Source: an uncultured archaeon
GTDB lineage: Archaea; Aenigmatarchaeota; Aenigmatarchaeia; CG10238-14; SCSR01
NCBI GenBank assembly: GCA_964471045.1
Contig: CAYYER010000001.1
Coordinates: 1 to 32,288, forward strand
Direction: 5' to 3'
DNA: 32,288 nucleotides
This document shows, piece after piece, positions 6,951 to 18,997 of this stretch. A program made the position numbers and the translations under genes. The notes under the pieces were generated by a model. It ran no database searches and was not told the origin of the DNA. It saw only the letters and a program-made list of their open reading frames with translations. Position 1 is the stretch's first letter. Each line of letters starts with the position of its first letter.

Positions 6951-8753
6951 CTAACCGGGCACCCCAAAACTTTTCTTCAAGTATCTAACTATTCTTGCAA
7001 AATTCCCTCCCGTCTCCCTTTGATGATATTTTGCAAGCCTATGGTGCATGGCAAACTCGTAAGGTCCGACTGCTCTAAAGAATCGAAGCTCTAGGCCAAA
7101 AGTTGCGAAGAACTTTCCTATACCCAGTCTAATTTTCTTACCTAATTCCTTAAACCTTTTCCTAGATTCCTCAGCTTTCTTAAGCCTCTCTTCTAACTTT
7201 CTTTCTTTCTCTTCTTTTTCTATCTCTTCGAGAGTTTTGTAAACTTCCTTATACCCTTCTTCGACTATTTTTTCTATCGAGAGAATTTTCCCCTCTTTTT
7301 CCCCCATCTCTCCAAGCATCCTGCTTATGTACTGTTCCAACTGCTTATCCCTTGCTATAAGCTCCAAACAATTAACGAGTATCAAATTCTGAGTTCTGGT
7401 TGCGGCATACAAATTCTCTATCCACAAATCTTCGACTTGAGCACCATTGGGCAATCTTAGAACAGTTCTTTCCATCGGAATGCAAATAAAAGTGAAGTAT
7501 GGACTAAAAACCCAGGGTTCTTTTCCGCCCAGAGCTGGCAAAGATTTCCTGAATTGGTCCAAAAGCATTTCCCTAGCTTTATACAAGTCGTAGGCTGTTA
7601 TCTTAACTCCATATTCTTTTTCTATTATTGGGACAAATGCTCTGACAACCCTATCTATGGAAGGTTCTTGAGGCAATCCAGAAACTTTTTCGTCCCATTT
7701 TTCCCCCAAATGCTTTTTAATCTCCAAAATCTCGCTCCTAGTAAAGCCTGCTTTTGAAGCTGGAATTTGGTCGAAGTATTCTCTAGTAATCTTATACTTT
7801 TCAGCAACCTGGAATGGCTTCCATGCCCAAAGGGTGACCTTATCCACAGAAATTGCTTGGGCGTCTGGCCTCATATGAGCAGCCTTAAGTATGCCCGCTC
7901 TTCCTTCTGGCATGCTAAGAGCTTCTGTAATCATCTTATACCTTGCTATAGTTGGCTTTAGCATTTCTCTATATTCTTCTATGGAAGCTTTCCTCATTTC
8001 AACCACGCTTAAAATTCTTCTATACCTTTGCTTAACGTTTTCCTTGAACATCTCTCTCCATTCTTTATAAAGCTTGTTTTTAGTGGCTAGAACAACGCCT
8101 TGAGCCTCAGAAACCCCATATTTTTTTGCAATTTCTTTTGGGTCTGTATCCTCGTCGGTTAGCTTCATGAAATCGGCTATGATGGTAGGCCACCTTGGGG
8201 CAATTAGCTTTAAGGCTATTCCTTCCCCTGTATGCACATCAACCTGATCTATAAAAATTGCTTTAAGAGTTTGTTCCCCCTCTCTCACAAGCTTTTCTCC
8301 CTCTTCCTTCTTTCCTTCTTTAATCAGCCTCTTTCCCTTTTCGATTTTAAGAAAATGATTCATGTATTCCCTATACTTTCTCAAATCGTGCAAGGCTAGC
8401 TCAAAATCTGAAATGGCTCTCGCAACGCTAGCTAAACCTTCTTTAATCCTTGCTTCCAAAGCTTCTTTTTGCCTCAGAGTCATCTCGTAGTATTCCCTAA
8501 AGACAGGGGATACAAAAATGCTTTCTTCTATCTTTGCGGTAAAGAATCCCCATTTGGGTAGCTGAAAGGAGAGAGCATAAAAAACTTCGCTAACTTTTCC
8601 GAGCGAGGAAGTAAAATCTAGGAGCATTTCTCCCTCGTAGGGAACAGCATTTATAACTTCTCCTGGCTCGAACCTAAGCTTCGCTTCAGGTCTTTCTGGA
8701 GGAATAACAAACCATGGTCTTGGTGCAGGAAATTCTGGAATGATCACTGGCAT
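6951..8753 (-). CDS. 600-aa soluble coiled-coil-rich orphan protein
   Basis: Probable ATG at 8753 (MPVIIPEFPAPRPW...); the track start 8789 is a TTG. Pro-rich N-terminus, heptad-like K/E-rich stretches near residues 100-180 and in the C-terminal 80 aa. No TM segment, no NTPase or nuclease motif I recognise. Confidence 0.6.
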   Translation of the reverse strand: MPVIIPEFPAPRPWFVIPPERPEAKLRFEPGEVINAVPYEGEMLLDFTSSLGKVSEVFYALSFQLPKWGFFTAKIEESIFVSPVFREYYEMTLRQKEALEARIKEGLASVARAISDFELALHDLRKYREYMNHFLKIEKGKRLIKEGKKEEGEKLVREGEQTLKAIFIDQVDVHTGEGIALKLIAPRWPTIIADFMKLTDEDTDPKEIAKKYGVSEAQGVVLATKNKLYKEWREMFKENVKQRYRRILSVVEMRKASIEEYREMLKPTIARYKMITEALSMPEGRAGILKAAHMRPDAQAISVDKVTLWAWKPFQVAEKYKITREYFDQIPASKAGFTRSEILEIKKHLGEKWDEKVSGLPQEPSIDRVVRAFVPIIEKEYGVKITAYDLYKAREMLLDQFRKSLPALGGKEPWVFSPYFTFICIPMERTVLRLPNGAQVEDLWIENLYAATRTQNLILVNCLELIARDKQLEQYISRMLGEMGEKEGKILSIEKIVEEGYKEVYKTLEEIEKEEKERKLEERLKKAEESRKRFKELGKKIRLGIGKFFATFGLELRFFRAVGPYEFAMHHRLAKYHQRETGGNFARIVRYLKKSFGVPG

Positions 8754-8792: not shown

Positions 8793-8957
8793 TTACAGCC
8801 AGAGCAAAACTAAGCCAATTATCATTAAAACTATTCCAAACAATACTCCTGCTCTCTGCATTTCAAAAGGTTGATAAGTAGGATGGGCAAAAGGAAATTT
8901 TACAACTATCAACAAGCCAAGAAAGAATAAGAATCCGCCAGCTATTTTGTTTATCAT
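8793..8957 (-). CDS. 54-aa two-TM hairpin membrane protein (below the ORF-track length cutoff)
   Basis: My translation of the minus strand: MINKIAGGFLFFLGLLIVVKFPFAHPTYQPFEMQRAGVLFGIVLMIIGLVLLWL*. ATG 8957-8955 overlaps the TGA 8956-8954 of the upstream small gene (ATGA). TAA at 8795-8793. Confidence 0.5.
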   Translation of the reverse strand: MINKIAGGFLFFLGLLIVVKFPFAHPTYQPFEMQRAGVLFGIVLMIIGLVLLWL

Positions 8958-9163
8958 AATTTAAGTAACTCCCAGCCAAGATAAATAAATATCGGTCCGA
9001 AGAAAAGCTGGAACAAGAAGTTTTTCTGATTTCCGACATAAACCAAGCCAAAGATAAAAACGCTTCCCAAAAACATTAAGACTGCTCCCAAAAGCTTAGA
9101 AACTAGAGGCGGTAAGCTTACTAACTTTACAAATTCTAAGATTTTTCCAGGATTTTCGAGCAT
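8954..9163 (-). CDS. 69-aa two-TM hairpin membrane protein
   Basis: MLENPGKILEFVKLVSLPPLVSKLLGAVLMFLGSVFIFGLVYVGNQKNFLFQLFFGPIFIYLGWELLKL. I prefer the internal ATG at 9163, because the track start at 9238 would overlap the divergent gene starting at 9223 and remove the promoter gap. Confidence 0.5.
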   Translation of the reverse strand: MLENPGKILEFVKLVSLPPLVSKLLGAVLMFLGSVFIFGLVYVGNQKNFLFQLFFGPIFIYLGWELLKL

Positions 9164-9183: not shown

Positions 9184-9192
9184 ATTTATAAC
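9184..9192. promoter_or_regulatory. putative shared TATA element (ATTTATAAC / GTTATAAAT) in the 59-nt divergent gap
   Basis: Centre is about 25 nt from ATG 9163 (minus) and about 35 nt from ATG 9223 (plus). It is the only strong TATA-like word in the gap. Confidence 0.35.
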
Positions 9193-9222: not shown

Positions 9223-9777
9223 ATGCCAGTATTTGCAAGGACCAAGCTAGTTATACACGATGATTGTTTAGCTACTGCTCCAGGAAGCGTTTTGCCTGGA
9301 GTTCCTTACTTGCTTTTAACCTACGAGGGTCCAAACCCCCAGCGCTTGTACGAAAAGATAAAGGAGCTTTTTGCAACGATTTTTAGGCACGATCCTGGGG
9401 AGCTTCAAGAAAGGGATTTTGTTTGGGATAAGAGTGAAGCAGGAGAAAAGTTTAGGGTAAGGTTTGAGCTCATAAAGGATATGGACAGATTTTCCTTCAT
9501 TCAGGTAATAGTAACCCTGCAAGGTGAAGCAAGGCCTAGCAAGGAATTTGGGAAGGAGGGAAAGGCGAAGATAAGGATAGAGGGAAGGATAAGGACCGAA
9601 TATCCTCAGGATACTCTCTGGCAAAGAAGCTTATTCTATGAAATGTTTAGGGTTTTGTACCATAGGCTAATCTACGAAGAGAAAAGGCAGAGATATAAGA
9701 ATCAGTGCAGGGAATGGCTTTTAAGGTTTCAAGACGAACTAAAGGCTTTCCTTAACATCTTGCCAAGGGAGAGGTAA
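9223..9777 (+). CDS. uncharacterised protein, tandem paralog A (184 aa)
   Basis: Shares DDCLA, Y.GP.P, ERDF.WD, IRI.GR.RTEY, QRS and YH.L.YEE blocks with the next gene. Stop TAA overlaps the next ATG (TAATG at 9775-9779). Confidence 0.7.
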   Translation: MPVFARTKLVIHDDCLATAPGSVLPGVPYLLLTYEGPNPQRLYEKIKELFATIFRHDPGELQERDFVWDKSEAGEKFRVRFELIKDMDRFSFIQVIVTLQGEARPSKEFGKEGKAKIRIEGRIRTEYPQDTLWQRSLFYEMFRVLYHRLIYEEKRQRYKNQCREWLLRFQDELKAFLNILPRER

Positions 9778-10292
9778 TGCCACGCTGGGTTTTTGAGGAC
9801 GATTGCCTAGCTCCAGAAAGAACCTTAACCATAGAGTACAGCGGCCCAGATCCTTTTAGAGTTTGTAGAGTTTTAAGAGATATGCTCGGGAGAATTTTTC
9901 AAGTCGAAACCATAGATTTGTGGGAAAGGGATTTTAGGTGGGACATAAGCTCAGACCCAAGACCTTTTTACATGAGGATGTACGTGAATAAAGGAATAGA
10001 TGCAAGAACTAGGATGATGGTCGAAATTACTGTTCAGGGTCTGCAACCATCTGACCCAAGTAAAAAAGGGAAGGTAACTATTAGAATAAGCGGGAGGTTA
10101 AGAACCGAGTACAATTTAAAATCGTTCTTTCAGCGTTCTCCTCTCTACAAAGCTTTTGTATGGGTCTATCACAAGCTTTTCTATGAAGAGGTGAAGAGAA
10201 GTTATATTCATCTGTGTAATAGGCTTATCGAAGAATTGCACTTAGAATTAAGGGCTTTATTCAAATTGCCCGTATCCGAGAGGGTAAGATAA
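9777..10292 (+). CDS. uncharacterised protein, tandem paralog B (171 aa)
   Basis: See paralog A. GGAGAGGT Shine-Dalgarno-like motif just upstream. TAATG overlap with the next gene at 10290-10294. Confidence 0.7.
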   Translation: MPRWVFEDDCLAPERTLTIEYSGPDPFRVCRVLRDMLGRIFQVETIDLWERDFRWDISSDPRPFYMRMYVNKGIDARTRMMVEITVQGLQPSDPSKKGKVTIRISGRLRTEYNLKSFFQRSPLYKAFVWVYHKLFYEEVKRSYIHLCNRLIEELHLELRALFKLPVSERVR

Positions 10293-10543
10293 TGGGAATA
10301 TTTTCGAGGATAAAGGGCATCTTTAGAAGGAAGAAAGAGGAGCCAGTAGAAGAATTGCCTGAGATTCCGGAGGAAAAGCCCTTGGAAAGCTTGGAGCCGG
10401 CAACCCTGGAAAATCTAAAGGCAAAAATGGATTTGATCCTAACCCAAATGGAAAGCTTAAAGATCCAGAATGAAACCTTGATGGAAAGACTGAAAATTAT
10501 AGAAAAACTGTTGATAGAAATAAGAAAGCTAGCGGTTAGCTGA
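10292..10543 (+). CDS. 83-aa protein: N-terminal basic amphipathic helix (MGIFSRIKGIFRRKK), acidic Pro-rich linker, C-terminal coiled coil
   Basis: Translation from the track. GAGAGGGT SD-like motif 7 nt upstream. Hydrophobic residues at positions 3, 4, 7, 10 and 11 with flanking R/K. Heptad-like L/I/M spacing in LKAKMDLILTQMESLKIQNETLMERLKIIEKLLIEIRKL. Confidence 0.6.
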   Translation: MGIFSRIKGIFRRKKEEPVEELPEIPEEKPLESLEPATLENLKAKMDLILTQMESLKIQNETLMERLKIIEKLLIEIRKLAVS

Positions 10544-11058: not shown

Positions 11059-11556
11059 TTAGAGTTCATCTCTACAAGTTTCGCATAACCATTTTCCTTC
11101 AACCTTTTTCAGCCCGTCATAAGCTTGACCGCAAGACTCACAAATCCCAATTTCCAAATCTTTTTCTTGATCTTCGGCTATTATTATAGGCTCGACTTTC
11201 CTCAATTTTAAGACATAGCCTGTGCCTAAAAAGTCGAAGTTAAAGAATTGAGCCAATTTTCTTGCCAGCTCTATATCTTTCCCAAAAAGCCACCAGAAAA
11301 GCTCGTTTATATAACAATAAGGACAAACCATCACATCGAAAGTTCTTTTACACCTTATGCATTTTACCTTTTTTTCTGGATTGCTCGATAAGAAGAATTT
11401 TGAAAATTTTTCGTGAAAAGATTCGAATTCCTTCCTAAGCTCTGGCTTATCCGAAAACAAGAATTTTTTGACATCCTTTGCTAAGCAATCTACGCAAATG
11501 AAATTGAACAAAGGTTCCAAGCACAATTTGCAAATCTGCGTTTCCCTTGCTTCCAT
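11059..11556 (-). CDS. Cys-rich protein with six CxxC motifs (three predicted zinc-ribbon sites), 165 aa
   Basis: CKLC..CVDC, CIRC..CPYC and CESC..CETC are arranged as three pairs. Confidence 0.65.
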   Translation of the reverse strand: MEARETQICKLCLEPLFNFICVDCLAKDVKKFLFSDKPELRKEFESFHEKFSKFFLSSNPEKKVKCIRCKRTFDVMVCPYCYINELFWWLFGKDIELARKLAQFFNFDFLGTGYVLKLRKVEPIIIAEDQEKDLEIGICESCGQAYDGLKKVEGKWLCETCRDEL

Positions 11557-12238: not shown

Positions 12239-12763
12239 ATGGAATTTGAGGAGAATAAAAAGGAGAAACGCTTAATGGAAAGAATTTTTTCAAAAGTGCC
12301 AGAAAAAGAGAAGATTAGATCTACGAGCATTACTCTAGGAAATATAATATGCATCCTAGCCAAGCATTTGATTAATTCAATGGGTTATGGTATTGCTGCG
12401 AGAGTAATCTCGAGAGAAATAAGAGAATTAGGTAAGAACGATATAAAAAGATTGGAGAAGCTTTTCAACATGAAAAAAACTTTTAAGAATAAAAAAAGGC
12501 TTACACGATTGGCCGGAATGCTTCTTGGGTTAGACTTAAGGATAGTAAAAGACGAAAAAGGAGAAACTCATGCGTTTATCATGAACTGTCCGTTCAACGA
12601 AATAATAAGGAAAATCCACGAGCCCTTCATTTGCAAAATGTGCGAGGAATATAATAGGGGTGTGGTAGAAAGCCTTTTCGGACCTAAGTTCAAGCTTGTA
12701 CCGCTTAAAAGGATGAGTGAAGGAGATAAATACTGCAAATATCACATAGTCGAAAAAGATTAA
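12239..12763 (+). CDS. V4R-like (4-vinyl-reductase / hydrocarbon-binding type) Cys-rich domain protein, tentative
   Basis: C-terminal pattern NCPF..x..PFICKMCEEYNRGVVESLFGP..x..SEGDKYCKYHIVE resembles the V4R domain Cys/Gly pattern. 31 nt downstream of the Lrp gene. Confidence 0.4.
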   Translation: MEFEENKKEKRLMERIFSKVPEKEKIRSTSITLGNIICILAKHLINSMGYGIAARVISREIRELGKNDIKRLEKLFNMKKTFKNKKRLTRLAGMLLGLDLRIVKDEKGETHAFIMNCPFNEIIRKIHEPFICKMCEEYNRGVVESLFGPKFKLVPLKRMSEGDKYCKYHIVEKD

Positions 12764-12793
12764 TTTTTAACTACCTTAATCTCTGTGAGGAGC

Positions 12794-13957
12794 ATGGGAA
12801 AGAAATATGAAGTCGGGATAATAGGAGGAGGTCCAGCAGGGAGTACTTGTGCTTATTATCTAGCTAGAAAAGGCGTTGATGTGATAATATTCGACCATAC
12901 TCAACCCAGGGAAAAAGTTTGTGGAGGCATCTTAAGCTCAACTCTTTTATCGAGATATACCATTCCTGTCGACATAATCGAAAGGAATTTAAATTTTTGC
13001 GAGGTGTATTCTCCCACTTACAAGAAGATCAGATGGACTTATAAAAAAACTCATGGTTCGGTTTCAAGAAAAAAATTTGATTGGTTTTTACTAGAAAAGG
13101 CGCTGGACGAAGGAGCTGAATGGAAAAAGCTCAAGGTAAACGACGTAGAAGAGAAAAGAGGGAGGTTTATACTTTCTACTAAAGAGGGGGAGTTTAAAGT
13201 TGAAAACGCTGTAGGGGCTGGCGGAGTCAATGGAATCTTAAGAAAGAAAAAAATAGGAGCGTTCCCGACAAAGCATCTTAGCAAGACTTATGACCTCAAG
13301 TTGAAGTTTGAAAAGGAATATGTAGATGAGCATTTTGAAGATGGTTGGTATCTGCTTTTCCTCGACGATAGATACGTTGGAAAAGGTTATGGCTGGCTTG
13401 TCCCAAAAAAGGATTATGTTTTAGTAGGATTGGGGTGTGAGCTAGAATACAAGGGAAATCTTAAAAAATCTTTGAAAGAATTGCTCCAGGTTCATCCCCT
13501 CCTTAAGGAAAAAATTGGAAAACCGAAGTCTGTAAAAGAGAGAGCTGCACTAATAGTTAGTCCAAAAACAGCAGAATTCTTCAAATCGAAGCATTGCGAT
13601 AAGAATTGGGTAATAATAGGAGAAGAAGGCGGCTTTGTCCATCCTTTAGAAGGAGATGGTCTTACTTACGCGATGATAACAGGAGAACTTGCTGCAAAGC
13701 TTTACATTGCTAATTCTTCCTTCGAAGATTTTGATAAGAAATGGGTTGAGGAATTTGGCGAAAAAATAGTAATTCCTAAGGATGGTATAGAAAACTTTTA
13801 CAACAAAAGCGTTTTGGACTTTCTTTTTGATATAGCTGAAGGGAAACCAGAACTAATCGACCAACTCTTTGAAGGTAAGCTAGAACTTAAAACTTTCCTA
13901 GCTGCCATCAAGAAAAAAACCGAAATGAATAATTCTAAGAAAGAGTCTGATAGTTAA
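12794..13957 (+). CDS. geranylgeranyl reductase family FAD-dependent oxidoreductase (archaeal lipid saturation type)
   Basis: N-terminal dinucleotide fold VGIIGGGPAGSTCAYYLARKGVDVIIFD followed by KVCGGIL, and later GEEGGFVHPLEGDGLTYAM. ATG at 12794 preferred over the track's GTG at 12785. Confidence 0.8.
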   Translation: MGKKYEVGIIGGGPAGSTCAYYLARKGVDVIIFDHTQPREKVCGGILSSTLLSRYTIPVDIIERNLNFCEVYSPTYKKIRWTYKKTHGSVSRKKFDWFLLEKALDEGAEWKKLKVNDVEEKRGRFILSTKEGEFKVENAVGAGGVNGILRKKKIGAFPTKHLSKTYDLKLKFEKEYVDEHFEDGWYLLFLDDRYVGKGYGWLVPKKDYVLVGLGCELEYKGNLKKSLKELLQVHPLLKEKIGKPKSVKERAALIVSPKTAEFFKSKHCDKNWVIIGEEGGFVHPLEGDGLTYAMITGELAAKLYIANSSFEDFDKKWVEEFGEKIVIPKDGIENFYNKSVLDFLFDIAEGKPELIDQLFEGKLELKTFLAAIKKKTEMNNSKKESDS

Positions 13958-13965
13958 AAATAAAG

Positions 13966-15108
13966 CTAGACCATTACTTTAATCTTGAACCTTTTCTCGA
14001 ACTTTTTAACTTCTCTTTCAACAATCTCTTCCATAAAGCCGAATACATAAGGCAAATCTTCTTCGTAAGGAGAATCCTTTAGGTTTTCATAGCTCTTCTC
14101 TAAATTTTCTGCATGCAGCACTATCATCCTAGAAATTTCAATCGAATTTTTCTTAAGGTAATTCTTCAGCTCTTTCAAACTCAAATGGTCGTAACCTTCC
14201 GAGACCATCTTGAGAGCCAAAACGTTTGCAGGATTTTTTATCCCAACCTTGCTTTTAGGGTCGTAAGCAAAATCTTCCTCTACCTCTTTTAAGTCGTCTG
14301 CAGCCAAATTCAAAAGGCTCGTCCCATTCAAGTAAAACTTCTCCAAATCTTCTAAGTATCCTTCTTCTCCACCAGCCAACAAATGGCTTACCACAGCCCA
14401 TGTAGCCCCTATTTCTCCAAGCTTTCTTTGGGTCTCTAAAATCTTTTCGAGAGAGACCAAGTTCTTTCTCACTTCTTCTATCCTTCCCTTTCTTAGACAG
14501 AATCTGTAGTAAAAATCTTTTGCCTGCACAGGGTCTAATCTTTCTCTTTTTCTTCTCGAATACTCTTCAAAAGCCCTTTCACTTCTCCTTCTAAGCCTGC
14601 TTGCTCCTTCGGTAAGCAGGTAGTGAGTGGCTTTAGCTAGATTTAGCGCTTCTCTATTCCCCGAAGAAATCCTGATCAAATTTTTAGTATCCCTCAGTAA
14701 ATCCAAGATTCTCTCGTATTTTTCGTTGGAACTAATAAAACTTTCCAGATAGTTATCGCAAAAATCATCCTCTGAATCTCCTCCTGGATAAAGGAATGCA
14801 CTCCCAGTTATCATATCGTATAAGCATTCTTCAGAAAAAGTTTTTTCATAATTTTGGTTGCAGGCATAAGCGGAAAGGGTTATGTTTCTGATAAACCAAG
14901 GCGGTCTGGTCTCCTTAAGCTTTCTCTTAATGATTTTAAAAATGTCTTGCTCTCGAGCGTAAACCCTTCCGATAATTTTTTCGGCTTCCCTGGCCCCGAT
15001 TAAGTTTTGAAGGTTATACTTTTTACCAATAGCTTTTGCATTCTTGCCATACTTTAATCCGAGACCAAAAATCTCCAGCTTGTTTCTAAGCCTCAAGCTT
15101 AGACTCAT
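13966..15108 (-). CDS. 380-aa soluble helical protein with DDxxD (DDFCD) and DDxxE (DDLKE) motifs; possible highly divergent isoprenoid (polyprenyl) synthase-fold protein
   Basis: DDFCD at codons 14755-14769. LLAGGEEGYLEDLEKFYLNGTSLLNLAADDLKE resembles the region preceding the second Asp-rich motif of trans-prenyltransferases. Embedded in the lipid gene cluster. The RRG that normally follows the first motif is absent. Confidence 0.35.
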   Translation of the reverse strand: MSLSLRLRNKLEIFGLGLKYGKNAKAIGKKYNLQNLIGAREAEKIIGRVYAREQDIFKIIKRKLKETRPPWFIRNITLSAYACNQNYEKTFSEECLYDMITGSAFLYPGGDSEDDFCDNYLESFISSNEKYERILDLLRDTKNLIRISSGNREALNLAKATHYLLTEGASRLRRRSERAFEEYSRRKRERLDPVQAKDFYYRFCLRKGRIEEVRKNLVSLEKILETQRKLGEIGATWAVVSHLLAGGEEGYLEDLEKFYLNGTSLLNLAADDLKEVEEDFAYDPKSKVGIKNPANVLALKMVSEGYDHLSLKELKNYLKKNSIEISRMIVLHAENLEKSYENLKDSPYEEDLPYVFGFMEEIVEREVKKFEKRFKIKVMV

Positions 15109-15152
15109 ATTTCTAATAACTAGAGTAAACCTTAAATCCTTTCGCCAGAAGA

Positions 15153-15160
15153 TTTAAAAT
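15153..15160 (+). promoter_or_regulatory. putative TATA box (TTTAAAAT) for the GGGPS-egsA operon
   Basis: Centre is 26-27 nt upstream of ATG 15183, consistent with a leaderless start. Confidence 0.4.
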
Positions 15161-15182
15161 TTTTAAATCGAATATCTATCCG

Positions 15183-15914
15183 ATGAAATTTTGCATACTC
15201 TACGACCCTGATAAGCCTTCCCTAGCAAAAAGAATGTTTGAAGAAACCGTTAAGCACAAAGAGATGATCGAAAAGGTTTGCGATTTTTGGGTTGGGACTA
15301 CCAAAGGCTCTTCCAAAGCCATAAGCTTCTGGTTAAAAAGGCTTGAAGAGGAAGGTTTGGAGGAAAGATATTTATTTCCAGGGCAAGTTTGGCATGCCTT
15401 GGCTGGAAAGCACGCCAAATACATCCTAAGACCAGAGTTGCTGAACAGAACTCCTTCTTTCAAAAGCTCTCTTGCTCGCTTGTACACAAAACTCGGAAAG
15501 CTTGCAACCAGATTTTTATATCCTTATTCTCCTCCTTATGAATTGGATTTTGGCTACCTAATCCTGGGGCCAGGGACGAGCGTCGGAGATTTTACAGGAG
15601 CTGCTAGGATAAGCGATGAAGATGCTTTAGCTTGCGTAGAAAATTATTTGGAGAAGAATAAAGCTTGTTATGGAGTTTACATAGAAGGAGGTTCTGGGGC
15701 GAGGATACCAGTGAGTAAGAGGATAGAATTAATAAAAAAAGCTAGAGAGATTTTGCCGAGCGATAAGGTTCTCCATGCAGGCGGGGGAATCAGGAGCCTG
15801 GAGGAACTAAAACTCTTGCTCGATTTAGGAACCAAGCCAGTAATAAGCACTCATTTCGAAGAAAAACCAAAAGATATTTATAGGTTTGCTAAAGAAGTGT
15901 ATAAAAGGGTATAA
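15183..15914 (+). CDS. geranylgeranylglyceryl phosphate synthase (PcrB/GGGPS family)
   Basis: TIM-barrel family motifs YIEGGSGA and HAGGGIRS near the C-terminus. Typical size (243 aa). Stop overlaps the egsA ATG (TAATG at 15912-15916). Confidence 0.75.
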   Translation: MKFCILYDPDKPSLAKRMFEETVKHKEMIEKVCDFWVGTTKGSSKAISFWLKRLEEEGLEERYLFPGQVWHALAGKHAKYILRPELLNRTPSFKSSLARLYTKLGKLATRFLYPYSPPYELDFGYLILGPGTSVGDFTGAARISDEDALACVENYLEKNKACYGVYIEGGSGARIPVSKRIELIKKAREILPSDKVLHAGGGIRSLEELKLLLDLGTKPVISTHFEEKPKDIYRFAKEVYKRV

Positions 15915-16978
15915 TGCCCTTCCATAAGGTCCATCTAATAAAAATACCCTGGAGAATAGCGATAGGAAAGAATGCTATCAAGACCATACCGAATCTCTTG
16001 GAAGAGCTTGGAGTTTTTTCTGCTCTCTTAGTCCACGGACCTCTAACCTCCGAGCTTGCTGGAAAAAGAATAGAAAAAATTCTAAGGAGAAATGGGTTTG
16101 AAGTTAGCTCGTTCATCGTAAACAAAGCGGATTTTTCGAGCGTTAAAAAAGTGGAGAAAAAAGCTAGGGCTTTAAAAGCCCAAGCTTTATTGGGGATAGG
16201 AGGAGGAAAAAACATAGACGTTGCAAAAACCGCTGCTTTCAAGCTCAAAATACCTTACTTAAGCGTTCCGACCATTCCTTCGCACGATGGCATAGCTTCG
16301 GCTTGCTCGAGCCTTTTCAAAGGAAGAAAAAAACATTCCCTGTTTTTAGATCCTCCTGCTGCCATAGTTGCTGACATGAAGTATTTGAGCAAAGCTCCCT
16401 TTAGATTTTTTGCCTCGGGCGCTGGAGACGTTATAGCAAAGTATACTGCAGTAACCGATTGGGAGCTTGCAAAAGAAAGGAAGGGAGAATATTATGGAGA
16501 GTATGCAGCCCAAATAACCTCTCTTGCAGCTTCTGTTATAATGGAGAATGCATCTAGGTATAAAGAAGATTATGGGTCGGCGGTAAGGCTTTTGACAGAA
16601 GCTTTGATAAGCTGTGGCTATGCGATGTGTATGGCTGGCTCTTCCAGACCATGCTCAGGCTCAGAGCATTTATTCGCCCATGCCATAGATTGGCTCTATC
16701 CATCAAACCAAGCTTTGCACGGAGAAAAAGTTGCTCTGGGAACTTTAATAATGAGCTATTATCAAGGAAAAGACTTTGAGTTTGTTAAGGAAGTTCTTAA
16801 GACTTTAAAGCTTCCTACAAACTATAGGGAGATAGAAATTCCTAGCAAGATTTTGATTAAGGCGGTAACCCACGCTTCAAAGATGAGAAAAAGGTATACT
16901 ATACTCGATGAGCTAAGAATAAAGAAAGGGAAAGAAAGGGAGGTTGAAAGAGTTCTTAAAAAATTGGAAATCATCTAG
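15914..16978 (+). CDS. egsA: glycerol-1-phosphate dehydrogenase [NAD(P)+]
   Basis: Iron-ADH/DHQS-like fold motifs GIGGGKNIDVAK, PTIPSHDGIAS, GAGDVIAK, SGSEHLFAHAID and HGEKVALGT. Confidence 0.88.
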   Translation: MPFHKVHLIKIPWRIAIGKNAIKTIPNLLEELGVFSALLVHGPLTSELAGKRIEKILRRNGFEVSSFIVNKADFSSVKKVEKKARALKAQALLGIGGGKNIDVAKTAAFKLKIPYLSVPTIPSHDGIASACSSLFKGRKKHSLFLDPPAAIVADMKYLSKAPFRFFASGAGDVIAKYTAVTDWELAKERKGEYYGEYAAQITSLAASVIMENASRYKEDYGSAVRLLTEALISCGYAMCMAGSSRPCSGSEHLFAHAIDWLYPSNQALHGEKVALGTLIMSYYQGKDFEFVKEVLKTLKLPTNYREIEIPSKILIKAVTHASKMRKRYTILDELRIKKGKEREVERVLKKLEII

Positions 16979-17836: not shown

Positions 17837-18997
17837 ATGATAGTTGGCTTAGTGGGAAAGCCGAATAGCGGGAAATCCAGCTTTTTAAAAGCAGCTACTT
17901 TAGCAGAAGTTGGAATTTCCCCCGTTCCATTCACTACTATTAAGCCCAACGTAGCTGTTGGTTACGTTTCGATAGATTGCGTATGCAAAGAGTTTGGAGT
18001 TGAGTGCAACCCGAAAAAAGGTTATTGCAAGAATGGAAAAAGGTTTGTCCCGATTAAGCTTGTGGATGTGGCTGGCTTGGTTCCCGATGCCCATAAGGGT
18101 AAAGGCTTGGGCAATCAATTCTTAGATGATTTAAGGCAAGCTTCTGTTCTAATCCATGTGGTCGATTTTTCTGGCTTAACTGATGAGGAGGGAAAACCAA
18201 CAAAAAACCATGATCCAAGCTTGGACATAGAGTTTTTAGAGAAAGAAATCGACTTATGGTTCGCTTCCATAATTAAAAGAGCTATCCAGAAATTTGAAAA
18301 GAAGATTGCAAAATTTTCCAAAGCAGATTTATTTCGAGTGCTAGCCGAACCACTCTATGGATTAGAAGTTAAAAAAGAACATGTAGAGAAGGCTTTGGAA
18401 AAAACTTCTATAAGCGATGTGGAAAATTTTGCAAAAGTTTTAAGAAAAATTTCCAAGCCGATTTTGATAGCTGCGAACAAGATAGATTTACCCCAAGCTC
18501 AAGCTAACTTTGAGCGATTGAAGGAAAGGTATGAGCACATAGTTCCTACGAGTGCTGAGGCTGAGATTGCCTTGAAAAAAGCTGCAGAGAAAAATTTAAT
18601 AGAATACTTACCAGGAAATGATTTTAAGATTTTGGAGGAAAGCAAGCTTGATGAAAGGCAGTTAAAAGCCTTAAAGCTCATAAGGGAAGGAGTTATTGAA
18701 AAGTACGGATCGACAGGAATTCAAGCTTGCTTGAATAAGGCTGTGTTTGAGTTGCTTGACTACATAGCCGTCTACCCCGTTGCAGATTCTAACAAGCTGT
18801 GCGATAAGGAAGGGAATGTCTTGCCAGACGTCTTTCTTGTGCCTAAAGGAACTACCTTAAAGGAATTCGCTTTTAAAATTCATACTGAGATTGGGGAAAA
18901 GTTTATTTGCGGAATAGATGCCAGGACAAAAAAGAGGTTGTCCGCTGATTATGTTTTAAAGGATAGGGATGTAATCGAAATAGCTTTTAGAAAATAG
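17837..18997 (+). CDS. OBG-family GTPase (Ygr210/YchF-related) with C-terminal TGS domain
   Basis: G1 GKPNSGKSS at residues 7-15, G3 DVAGLV, G4 NKID, GNQFLDDLRQASVLIHVVD, and a TGS-like C-terminus (..YVLKDRDVIEIAF). Confidence 0.8.
   Translation: MIVGLVGKPNSGKSSFLKAATLAEVGISPVPFTTIKPNVAVGYVSIDCVCKEFGVECNPKKGYCKNGKRFVPIKLVDVAGLVPDAHKGKGLGNQFLDDLRQASVLIHVVDFSGLTDEEGKPTKNHDPSLDIEFLEKEIDLWFASIIKRAIQKFEKKIAKFSKADLFRVLAEPLYGLEVKKEHVEKALEKTSISDVENFAKVLRKISKPILIAANKIDLPQAQANFERLKERYEHIVPTSAEAEIALKKAAEKNLIEYLPGNDFKILEESKLDERQLKALKLIREGVIEKYGSTGIQACLNKAVFELLDYIAVYPVADSNKLCDKEGNVLPDVFLVPKGTTLKEFAFKIHTEIGEKFICGIDARTKKRLSADYVLKDRDVIEIAFRK

Follow-up and report, generated by a model that had tools for sequence, protein, structure and literature searches.

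Aenigmatarchaeota are uncultured DPANN archaea with small genomes, in which a large share of the conserved genes lacks a functional assignment. The window, by which we mean the whole 32,288-nucleotide stretch of DNA analysed here, comes from a 589-kb assembly that is 76% complete, and carries two tandem paralogs followed directly by a gene for an 83-residue protein that begins MGIFSRIKGIFRRKKEEP. A sequence-only reading of the window had likened this N-terminus to the membrane-binding helix of PspA, Vipp1 and ESCRT-III. The locus thus raises the question of whether the small protein is a miniature member of that superfamily or a different protein equipped with a similar peptide, and what it does beside its two neighbours. 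We find that it represents a new protein family using a known device, within an uncharacterised phylum-wide module. We define this module of three genes (A, B and the small gene) and propose a testable membrane-tethering role for its smallest member.

The small gene closes a three-gene operon

The small gene, whose full translation is MGIFSRIKGIFRRKKEEPVEELPEIPEEKPLESLEPATLENLKAKMDLILTQMESLKIQNETLMERLKIIEKLLIEIRKLAVS, is the last of three genes read from the forward strand downstream of a divergent intergenic gap:

9185–9191, + strand: TATA-like element TTTATAA within the AT-rich gap between the divergent operons, about 32 nt 5′ of the paralog A ATG (putative; inspection of the sequence)
9223–9777, + strand: paralog A, 184 aa, first gene of the A–B–small operon (open reading frame, gene order)
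9777–10292, + strand: paralog B, 171 aa, directly 5′ of the small gene with a one-base overlap (open reading frame, gene order, AF2 model)
10292–10543, + strand: small-protein gene, 83 aa, stop codon included (open reading frame, homologues, synonymous codon variation)

At 10290–10294, in the sequence TAATG, the ATG of the small gene and the TAA stop of paralog B share one base, and paralog A is joined to paralog B likewise, by a one-base overlap at 9775–9779. These stop/start overlaps therefore mark A, B and the small gene as a tightly coupled three-gene operon, in agreement with the sequence-only reading, which had described the small gene as translationally coupled to the tandem paralogs. 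The operon is putatively transcribed from the AT-rich divergent gap that holds the TTTATAA element.

The small open reading frame is short, and a longer frame of 103 aa overlaps it on the opposite strand, both of which would fit the objection that it is not a gene, or that translation begins further downstream and leaves out the MGIFSR motif. Its relatives speak against this. A word-indexed search returned 12 close homologues with 49–100% identity, and a search of whole genomes placed the family in 137 of the phylum's 301. An exhaustive HMMER profile search covering 1.84 billion representatives recovered 204 cluster representatives at E ≤ 1e-3, 135 of these at E ≤ 1e-10. The 204 representatives keep both the length (all clusters are 37–150 aa) and the N-terminus, and the named members all come from Candidatus Aenigmatarchaeota. 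Among 21 relatives that start with MG, the codons vary over constant residues, with four codons for G2, ATA or ATT for I3, TTT or TTC for F4 and TCG, TCA or TCT for S5; a Shine–Dalgarno-like motif, GGTGA-like or GAGG, is present 5–12 nt 5′ of the ATG. The next in-frame ATG is that of M46, and the conserved residues E35–K45 precede it. The codon variation at residues 2–5, the Shine–Dalgarno-like motif and the conserved residues before M46 together argue that the N-terminal motif is translated from M1, and not from a start downstream of the motif, an outcome that the sequence-only reading had itself held open. Judged by these sequence patterns, the frame is a real gene with M1 as its start, and we regard the contrary view as extremely improbable.

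A three-part architecture with a conserved coiled-coil helix

In all 151 family sequences, an N-terminal peptide with a basic cluster is connected by a variable Pro-rich linker to a conserved C-terminal helix. In the window protein these parts are:

10292–10339, + strand: residues 1–16, MGIFSRIKGIFRRKKE, predicted amphipathic membrane-targeting peptide and basic cluster (hydrophobic moment, family consensus, SepF motif, transmembrane replacement in family member P0192)
10340–10405, + strand: residues 17–38, acidic Pro-rich linker (poor conservation, variable length, richness in P and E)
10406–10540, + strand: residues 39–83, conserved helix with the pattern of a six-heptad coiled coil, core motif ENLKAKMDLILTQ (conservation, 3.5-residue periodicity)

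The N-terminal peptide has the pattern M-G-[IL]-[FL]-[SD]-[RK]-hydrophobic, with the family consensus M-G-I-F-[DS]-[RK]-[IF]-K-K-K, and some members open with MGLFDR or MGIFDR. The first KK or RR pair falls at a median position of 10, and residues 1–16 carry a mean net charge of +2.9. The motif singled out by the sequence-only reading is thus retained by homologues across the family. The linker that follows is rich in P and E, poorly conserved and between about 15 and more than 80 residues long.

The C-terminal helix spans about 45 residues, with the consensus ..EN[VL]KAK[MI]DL[IVL]LTQ[ML]DSL[KR]xQ[YN]ExLNERIxNIE[KR]M.., in which D47 and E71 never vary and K43, K45, L48 and E76 hardly do. Across the 151 members, hydrophobic residues recur at positions 42, 46, 49, 53, 56, 60, 63, 67, 70, 74, 77 and 80 with strict 3–4 spacing, and the heptad a and d positions are at least 91% hydrophobic, with the exception of position 60, which is Y or N. 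The Fourier power of helix hydrophobicity in the family is 1.62 at a period of 3.5 residues, compared with 0.84 at 3.6. The 3–4 repeat runs continuously over six heptads, where at least four are expected of a coiled coil. On this pattern we read the C-terminal part as a genuine six-heptad coiled coil, consistent with the earlier description of an acidic Pro-rich linker followed by about 40 residues of heptad repeats, and consider it probable that this coiled coil oligomerises. The C-terminal tail itself comes in flavours that track subfamilies, namely ..MAKS (95 of 151), ..G[IV][RK]YY, for example ..MRGIRYY (29 of 151), and ..R[SG][FY]CK, for example ..RSFCK (19 of 151).

Generic short parallel coiled coils of the leucine-zipper type resemble the small protein in having continuous heptads (six here) and an Asn or Tyr at one core position (60 here), and the small protein gives weak matches to bZIP_1 and HALZ. 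Unlike them, it has further conserved hydrophobic residues in the helix, at positions 48, 50, 58 and 73. Together with the invariant D47 and E71, these residues suggest, from the conservation pattern, a wider and specific interface, possibly hetero-oligomeric or of higher order, and not a simple dimer.

Scans of the small protein and its neighbours against Pfam, NCBIfam, PADLOC and PHROGs gave no match above cut-off, and those below it for the small protein were confined to generic coiled coils. A PDB sequence search with the family profile returned a spurious ubiquitin match (ENVKAKI) and coiled coils alone, and a sequence search with the 25-residue N-terminus returned no matches.

The likeness to PspA and Vipp1 ends at residue 13

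Residues 1–6 of the small protein are identical to those of E. coli PspA, which begins MGIFSRFADIV (PDB 4WHE; MGIFSRFADIVNAN), as the sequence-only reading had stated for the first seven residues. The family members that open with MGLFDR match Synechocystis Vipp1, which begins MGLFDRLGRVV (MGLFDRLGRVVRAN). The N-terminus is therefore of the PspA/Vipp1 type that the reading had claimed. In PspA, helix α0 inserts into the membrane surface (PMC12358876). Aligning the family with residues 1–63 of PspA/Vipp1 by hhalign paired 13 columns at 54% identity with a probability of 38%. By the MGIFSR identity, these 13 columns and a hydrophobic moment (μH) of 0.76, the small protein would have a counterpart of the N-terminal amphipathic helix α0. 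In eukaryotic and archaeal ESCRT-III proteins (Snf7), membrane insertion likewise involves a short N-terminal motif of basic and hydrophobic residues, resembling that of the small protein.

The likenesses to PspA and Vipp1 would suit a minimal PspA/Vipp1/ESCRT-III-like protein, a homologue or a remnant, whose α0 inserts into the membrane while the coiled coil polymerises into a remodelling or protective coat. The window's genome and 20 relatives, moreover, contain no canonical PspA or Snf7 gene above cut-off that would make such a protein redundant. Beyond residue 13, however, the likeness stops. The profiles PF04012 and PF03357 gave no match to the window protein at E ≤ 1, nor to 23 family members at E ≤ 10, and PspA, Vipp1 and ESCRT-III are absent from the matches of the PDB profile search at E ≤ 10. 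PspA and Vipp1 are 222–277 aa long and comprise an α1–α2 hairpin of about 100 residues and helices α3–α5, whereas the family of 37–150 aa lacks these and has a single helix of about 45 residues. The profile match over the helical core of PspA/IM30 is missing, as are the core fold and the profile match of ESCRT-III/Snf7. Longer relatives, which the sequence-only reading had proposed to look for, did not appear: the exhaustive profile search found no homologue above 150 aa among the 1.84 billion representatives, and the extra length in the longest family members is Pro-rich linker.

Because the defining helical hairpin is absent, we rejected membership in PspA/ESCRT-III. A mini PspA/ESCRT-III reading of the small protein is contradicted by a similarity that ends at residue 13, the lack of a profile match and the lack of the hairpin, and we find a homologue or remnant that builds such a coat very hard to credit. 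What stands of the original interpretation is a membrane-binding motif, predicted from sequence, and an oligomerisation module; kinship with PspA or ESCRT-III beyond 13 residues is unsupported, as is membrane remodelling.

The same motif heads SepF in the same genome

We scanned all open reading frames of the assembly for the N-terminal pattern M-[GSA]-φ-φ-[SDGNT]...[KR]3. Two ATG-started frames in the 589-kb genome carry it, the small gene and a SepF homologue, and a third match is a TTG-started frame on contig C31. The SepF homologue is a 107-aa frame outside the window (contig C5, 6725–7048, − strand) that matches PF04472 above the Pfam cut-off. It starts MGIFDLLKKKEEEE, the longer N-terminal stretch being MGIFDLLKKKEEEEAIEV. 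SepF orthologues in five congeners (L054–L058) begin MGILDIFKKKEEE, MGIFDKLKSKSEE or MGILDKLKGKSEE, and the N-terminus of one member of the small-protein family (P0261, MGILDIFKRKKKS) is near-identical to that of SepF in the congener L055 (MGILDIFKKKEEE). In archaeal SepF, an amphipathic helix at residues 1–12, whose binding to lipid vesicles has been demonstrated experimentally, leads into a flexible linker and then a binding core (PMC8178401).

The same motif thus heads SepF and the small protein in one genome, as a generic membrane-targeting sequence of the lineage would, and this also argues against the motif being specific to the PspA/ESCRT-III superfamily. By this analogy, MG-[IL]-F-[SD]-[RK] is better read as such a generic sequence than as a sign of PspA kinship. 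The PspA/Vipp1-type N-terminus would then be a portable membrane-targeting peptide, carried within one archaeal lineage by unrelated proteins (SepF and the small family), and its presence on unrelated proteins calls for caution, since ESCRT-III ancestry cannot be deduced from the motif alone.

The parallel with SepF (PF04472), the archaeal and bacterial FtsZ membrane anchor, extends to the overall plan, in which a flexible linker joins an N-terminal helix of about 12 residues to a C-terminal interaction module. Judging by its motif and its Pro/Glu-rich linker of variable length, the small protein has both the helix and the linker. It differs in its C-terminal part, where a single coiled-coil helix takes the place of the FtsZ-binding α/β core: PF04472 finds no match in the small protein, and the two true SepF genes of the genome lie on contigs C5 and C12. 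The plan of anchor, linker and interaction module makes a tether like SepF the better analogy, compared with a membrane-remodelling ESCRT-III polymer.

The near-identical N-termini of P0261 and the SepF of L055 could also be taken to mean that the small protein is a cytoskeleton or division adaptor working alongside SepF, with a coiled coil that binds FtsZ or another filament and not A/B; small coiled-coil proteins are, after all, common divisome accessories. Such a role is distinctly unlikely, however, for a protein without the SepF core domain whose gene is unlinked to ftsZ and sepF, SepF being encoded on other contigs. The small gene adjoins the A/B paralogs, not division genes, and is consistently linked and translationally coupled to them.

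The second SepF paralog (L050, contig C12) starts MVFKKLLEKIK. The C5 and C12 proteins differ at the N-terminus, so the two SepF genes of this genome encode different anchors.

Transmembrane variants support membrane association

For residues 3–13 of the small protein, μH on the Eisenberg scale is 0.76, which lies between the values for PspA (0.57) and Vipp1 (0.83). A value this high also arises in 15% of shuffles of the same composition, so that the amphipathic moment alone is non-discriminating; across the family, the mean moment is 0.53, against 0.46 for shuffles. The moment check proposed by the sequence-only reading thus gave a value of the expected size that is not significant against shuffles.

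Variation within the family is more telling. In 3 of the 151 members, for example P0192 (MNMAFLTLVIAFFIIVVVVVVLIKFGILKKLLRRKKEE), the N-terminus is transmembrane-like, and in 8 of the 151 it is a longer hydrophobic segment containing FPF; the same basic patch comes next in both groups. The gene order around P0192 is identical to that of the window. Replacement of a peripheral peptide by a transmembrane helix in orthologues is what an anchoring role predicts.

A soluble coiled-coil protein, resembling a chaperone, a prefoldin or a regulator and using its N-terminus as a protein contact or as a degradation or sorting tag, would account for the statistically unexceptional moment and for weak coiled-coil matches to Prefoldin_2, FlaC_arch, bZIP_1 and YabA. 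None of those matches, however, reaches its curated cut-off, and coiled coils of any kind typically give them. A protein that stays off the membrane, by contrast, does not easily account for orthologues that carry genuine transmembrane helices in an unchanged gene order, or for a motif identical to the SepF anchor. We therefore consider a soluble protein unlikely, and the sequence evidence makes it highly probable that the small protein associates with the membrane.

A proposed tether for paralogs A and B

Of 30 close loci, 26 have the order A→B→small, usually with stop and start codons that overlap or nearly do, and in 26 of the 30 paralog B ends within 60 nt of the start of the small gene. 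All seven sampled loci from distant families of the class have the same order; the small protein there is 117–151 aa long, with starts such as MSIFDRVIGAVRKF and MGIFSAIKKRLGR. Three other sampled genomes differ, the small gene being unlinked from A/B in two (L047 and L048) and two genes away in the third (L049). Members of the A/B family occur in 285 of the phylum's 301 genomes and in 96 of the 98 high-quality ones, typically in two copies.

The AF2 model of paralog B (pLDDT 90.4) has a seven-stranded sheet, one short helix and a C-terminal helix of 40 residues. Foldseek returned weak matches (E about 2e-3, TM 0.2–0.3), many of which are START/Bet v 1/SRPBCC lipid-binding proteins; SecB-like and DcrB-like structures also matched weakly. 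On the predicted structure, the A/B fold is weakly START/SRPBCC-like. Two cysteines (C10 and C147 of B) are invariant across the A/B family, which also shares an ERDFRWD block and corresponds to no Pfam family. One in-frame stop was seen in the paralog-B matches of G076, G090, G092, G253, G017 (TAA), G283 and G221 (TGA), genomes of which three belong to one genus and two to another; these stops could be genuine, or could reflect alignment across the junction of the A stop and the B start.

Taking the observed architecture, conservation, heptad pattern, gene order and coupling together, our preferred reading, to which we assign a probability of roughly 55%, is that the small protein is a peripheral-membrane tether whose coiled coil oligomerises or docks A/B. 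In this model, residues 1–13 would fold into an amphipathic helix on the cytoplasmic face of the membrane, with I3, F4, I7, I10 and F11 on one face of the helix and S5, R6, K8, R12 and R13 on the other, and the basic cluster that follows would bind anionic lipid head groups. The acidic Pro-rich linker would act as a flexible spacer that holds the six-heptad coiled coil off the membrane, where it would self-associate, dock the co-translated A and B, or both. A and B, each ending in a helix of about 40 residues, would thereby be concentrated at the membrane. That A and B are the docked partners is suggested by gene order, and we give this part of the model slightly less than even odds. If A and B are indeed membrane-recruited lipid-binding proteins, the module would bear on how these reduced archaea build or maintain their membranes.

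The divergent operon and the wider neighbourhood

On the other side of the intergenic gap, the divergent operon contains:

8793–9163, − strand: two small 2-TM proteins, 69 and 54 aa, at the head of the divergent operon (conserved neighbours)
6951–8753, − strand: conserved 600-aa protein (homologues, AF2 model)

It also includes a TIM-barrel-like protein. The counterpart 2-TM pair in L062/L063 measures 53 and 50 aa. The search for relatives of the 600-aa protein gave more than 524 homologues with about 50% identity, all of them hypothetical proteins of Aenigmatarchaeota; in distant families the protein keeps its position relative to the A–B–small module. Its AF2 model (pLDDT 77) contains two helices of 60–65 residues and β domains, and a search of PDB and BFVD for structural relatives gave no meaningful match (TM ≤ 0.17). 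No gene of the module or the divergent operon matched defence or phage families.

A bolder proposal, which we offer tentatively and consider doubtful as it stands, is that the small protein is the membrane anchor of an undescribed machine found throughout Aenigmatarchaeota, made up of START/helix-grip-like A/B, the 600-aa long-hairpin protein and the two 2-TM miniproteins. If this were true, the machine might serve DPANN archaea as a novel system for handling lipids or scaffolding the envelope.

Directly downstream of the module, at 12785–16978 of the window, lies an ether-lipid biosynthesis cluster comprising an FAD-dependent oxidoreductase (geranylgeranyl-reductase-like), an orphan on the opposite strand, a PcrB-family protein (GGGP-synthase-like) and an Fe-ADH_2 protein (G1P-dehydrogenase-like), and in L006 a polyprenyl synthetase, assigned by a Pfam match, comes next after the module. 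In the distant families that we scanned, the flanks hold housekeeping genes (Obg-like GTPase, NAD kinase, deoxyhypusine synthase and ABCE1), and the ether-lipid linkage is therefore lineage-specific. We accordingly dropped lipid-gene linkage, missing from these families, as functional evidence for the module.

An Obg-like GTPase with YGR210-like_G4, MMR_HSR1 and TGS domains is encoded at 17837–18997 of the window (+ strand). It recurs within a few kilobases of the module in L040, L041, L042 and L062, distant families included, which points to a conserved neighbourhood of long standing. At 11059–11556 of the window (− strand), convergent to the small gene, is a gene for a Cys-rich protein of 165 aa with several CxxC pairs and no Pfam family, which is kept in place in L005 (8642–9136, − strand) and L007 (8147–8653, − strand). 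Finally, the protein encoded at 12239–12763 of the window (+ strand), earlier labelled V4R-like, matches the Pfam family ATC_hydrolase (PF14196) above the cut-off with an E value of 1e-8.
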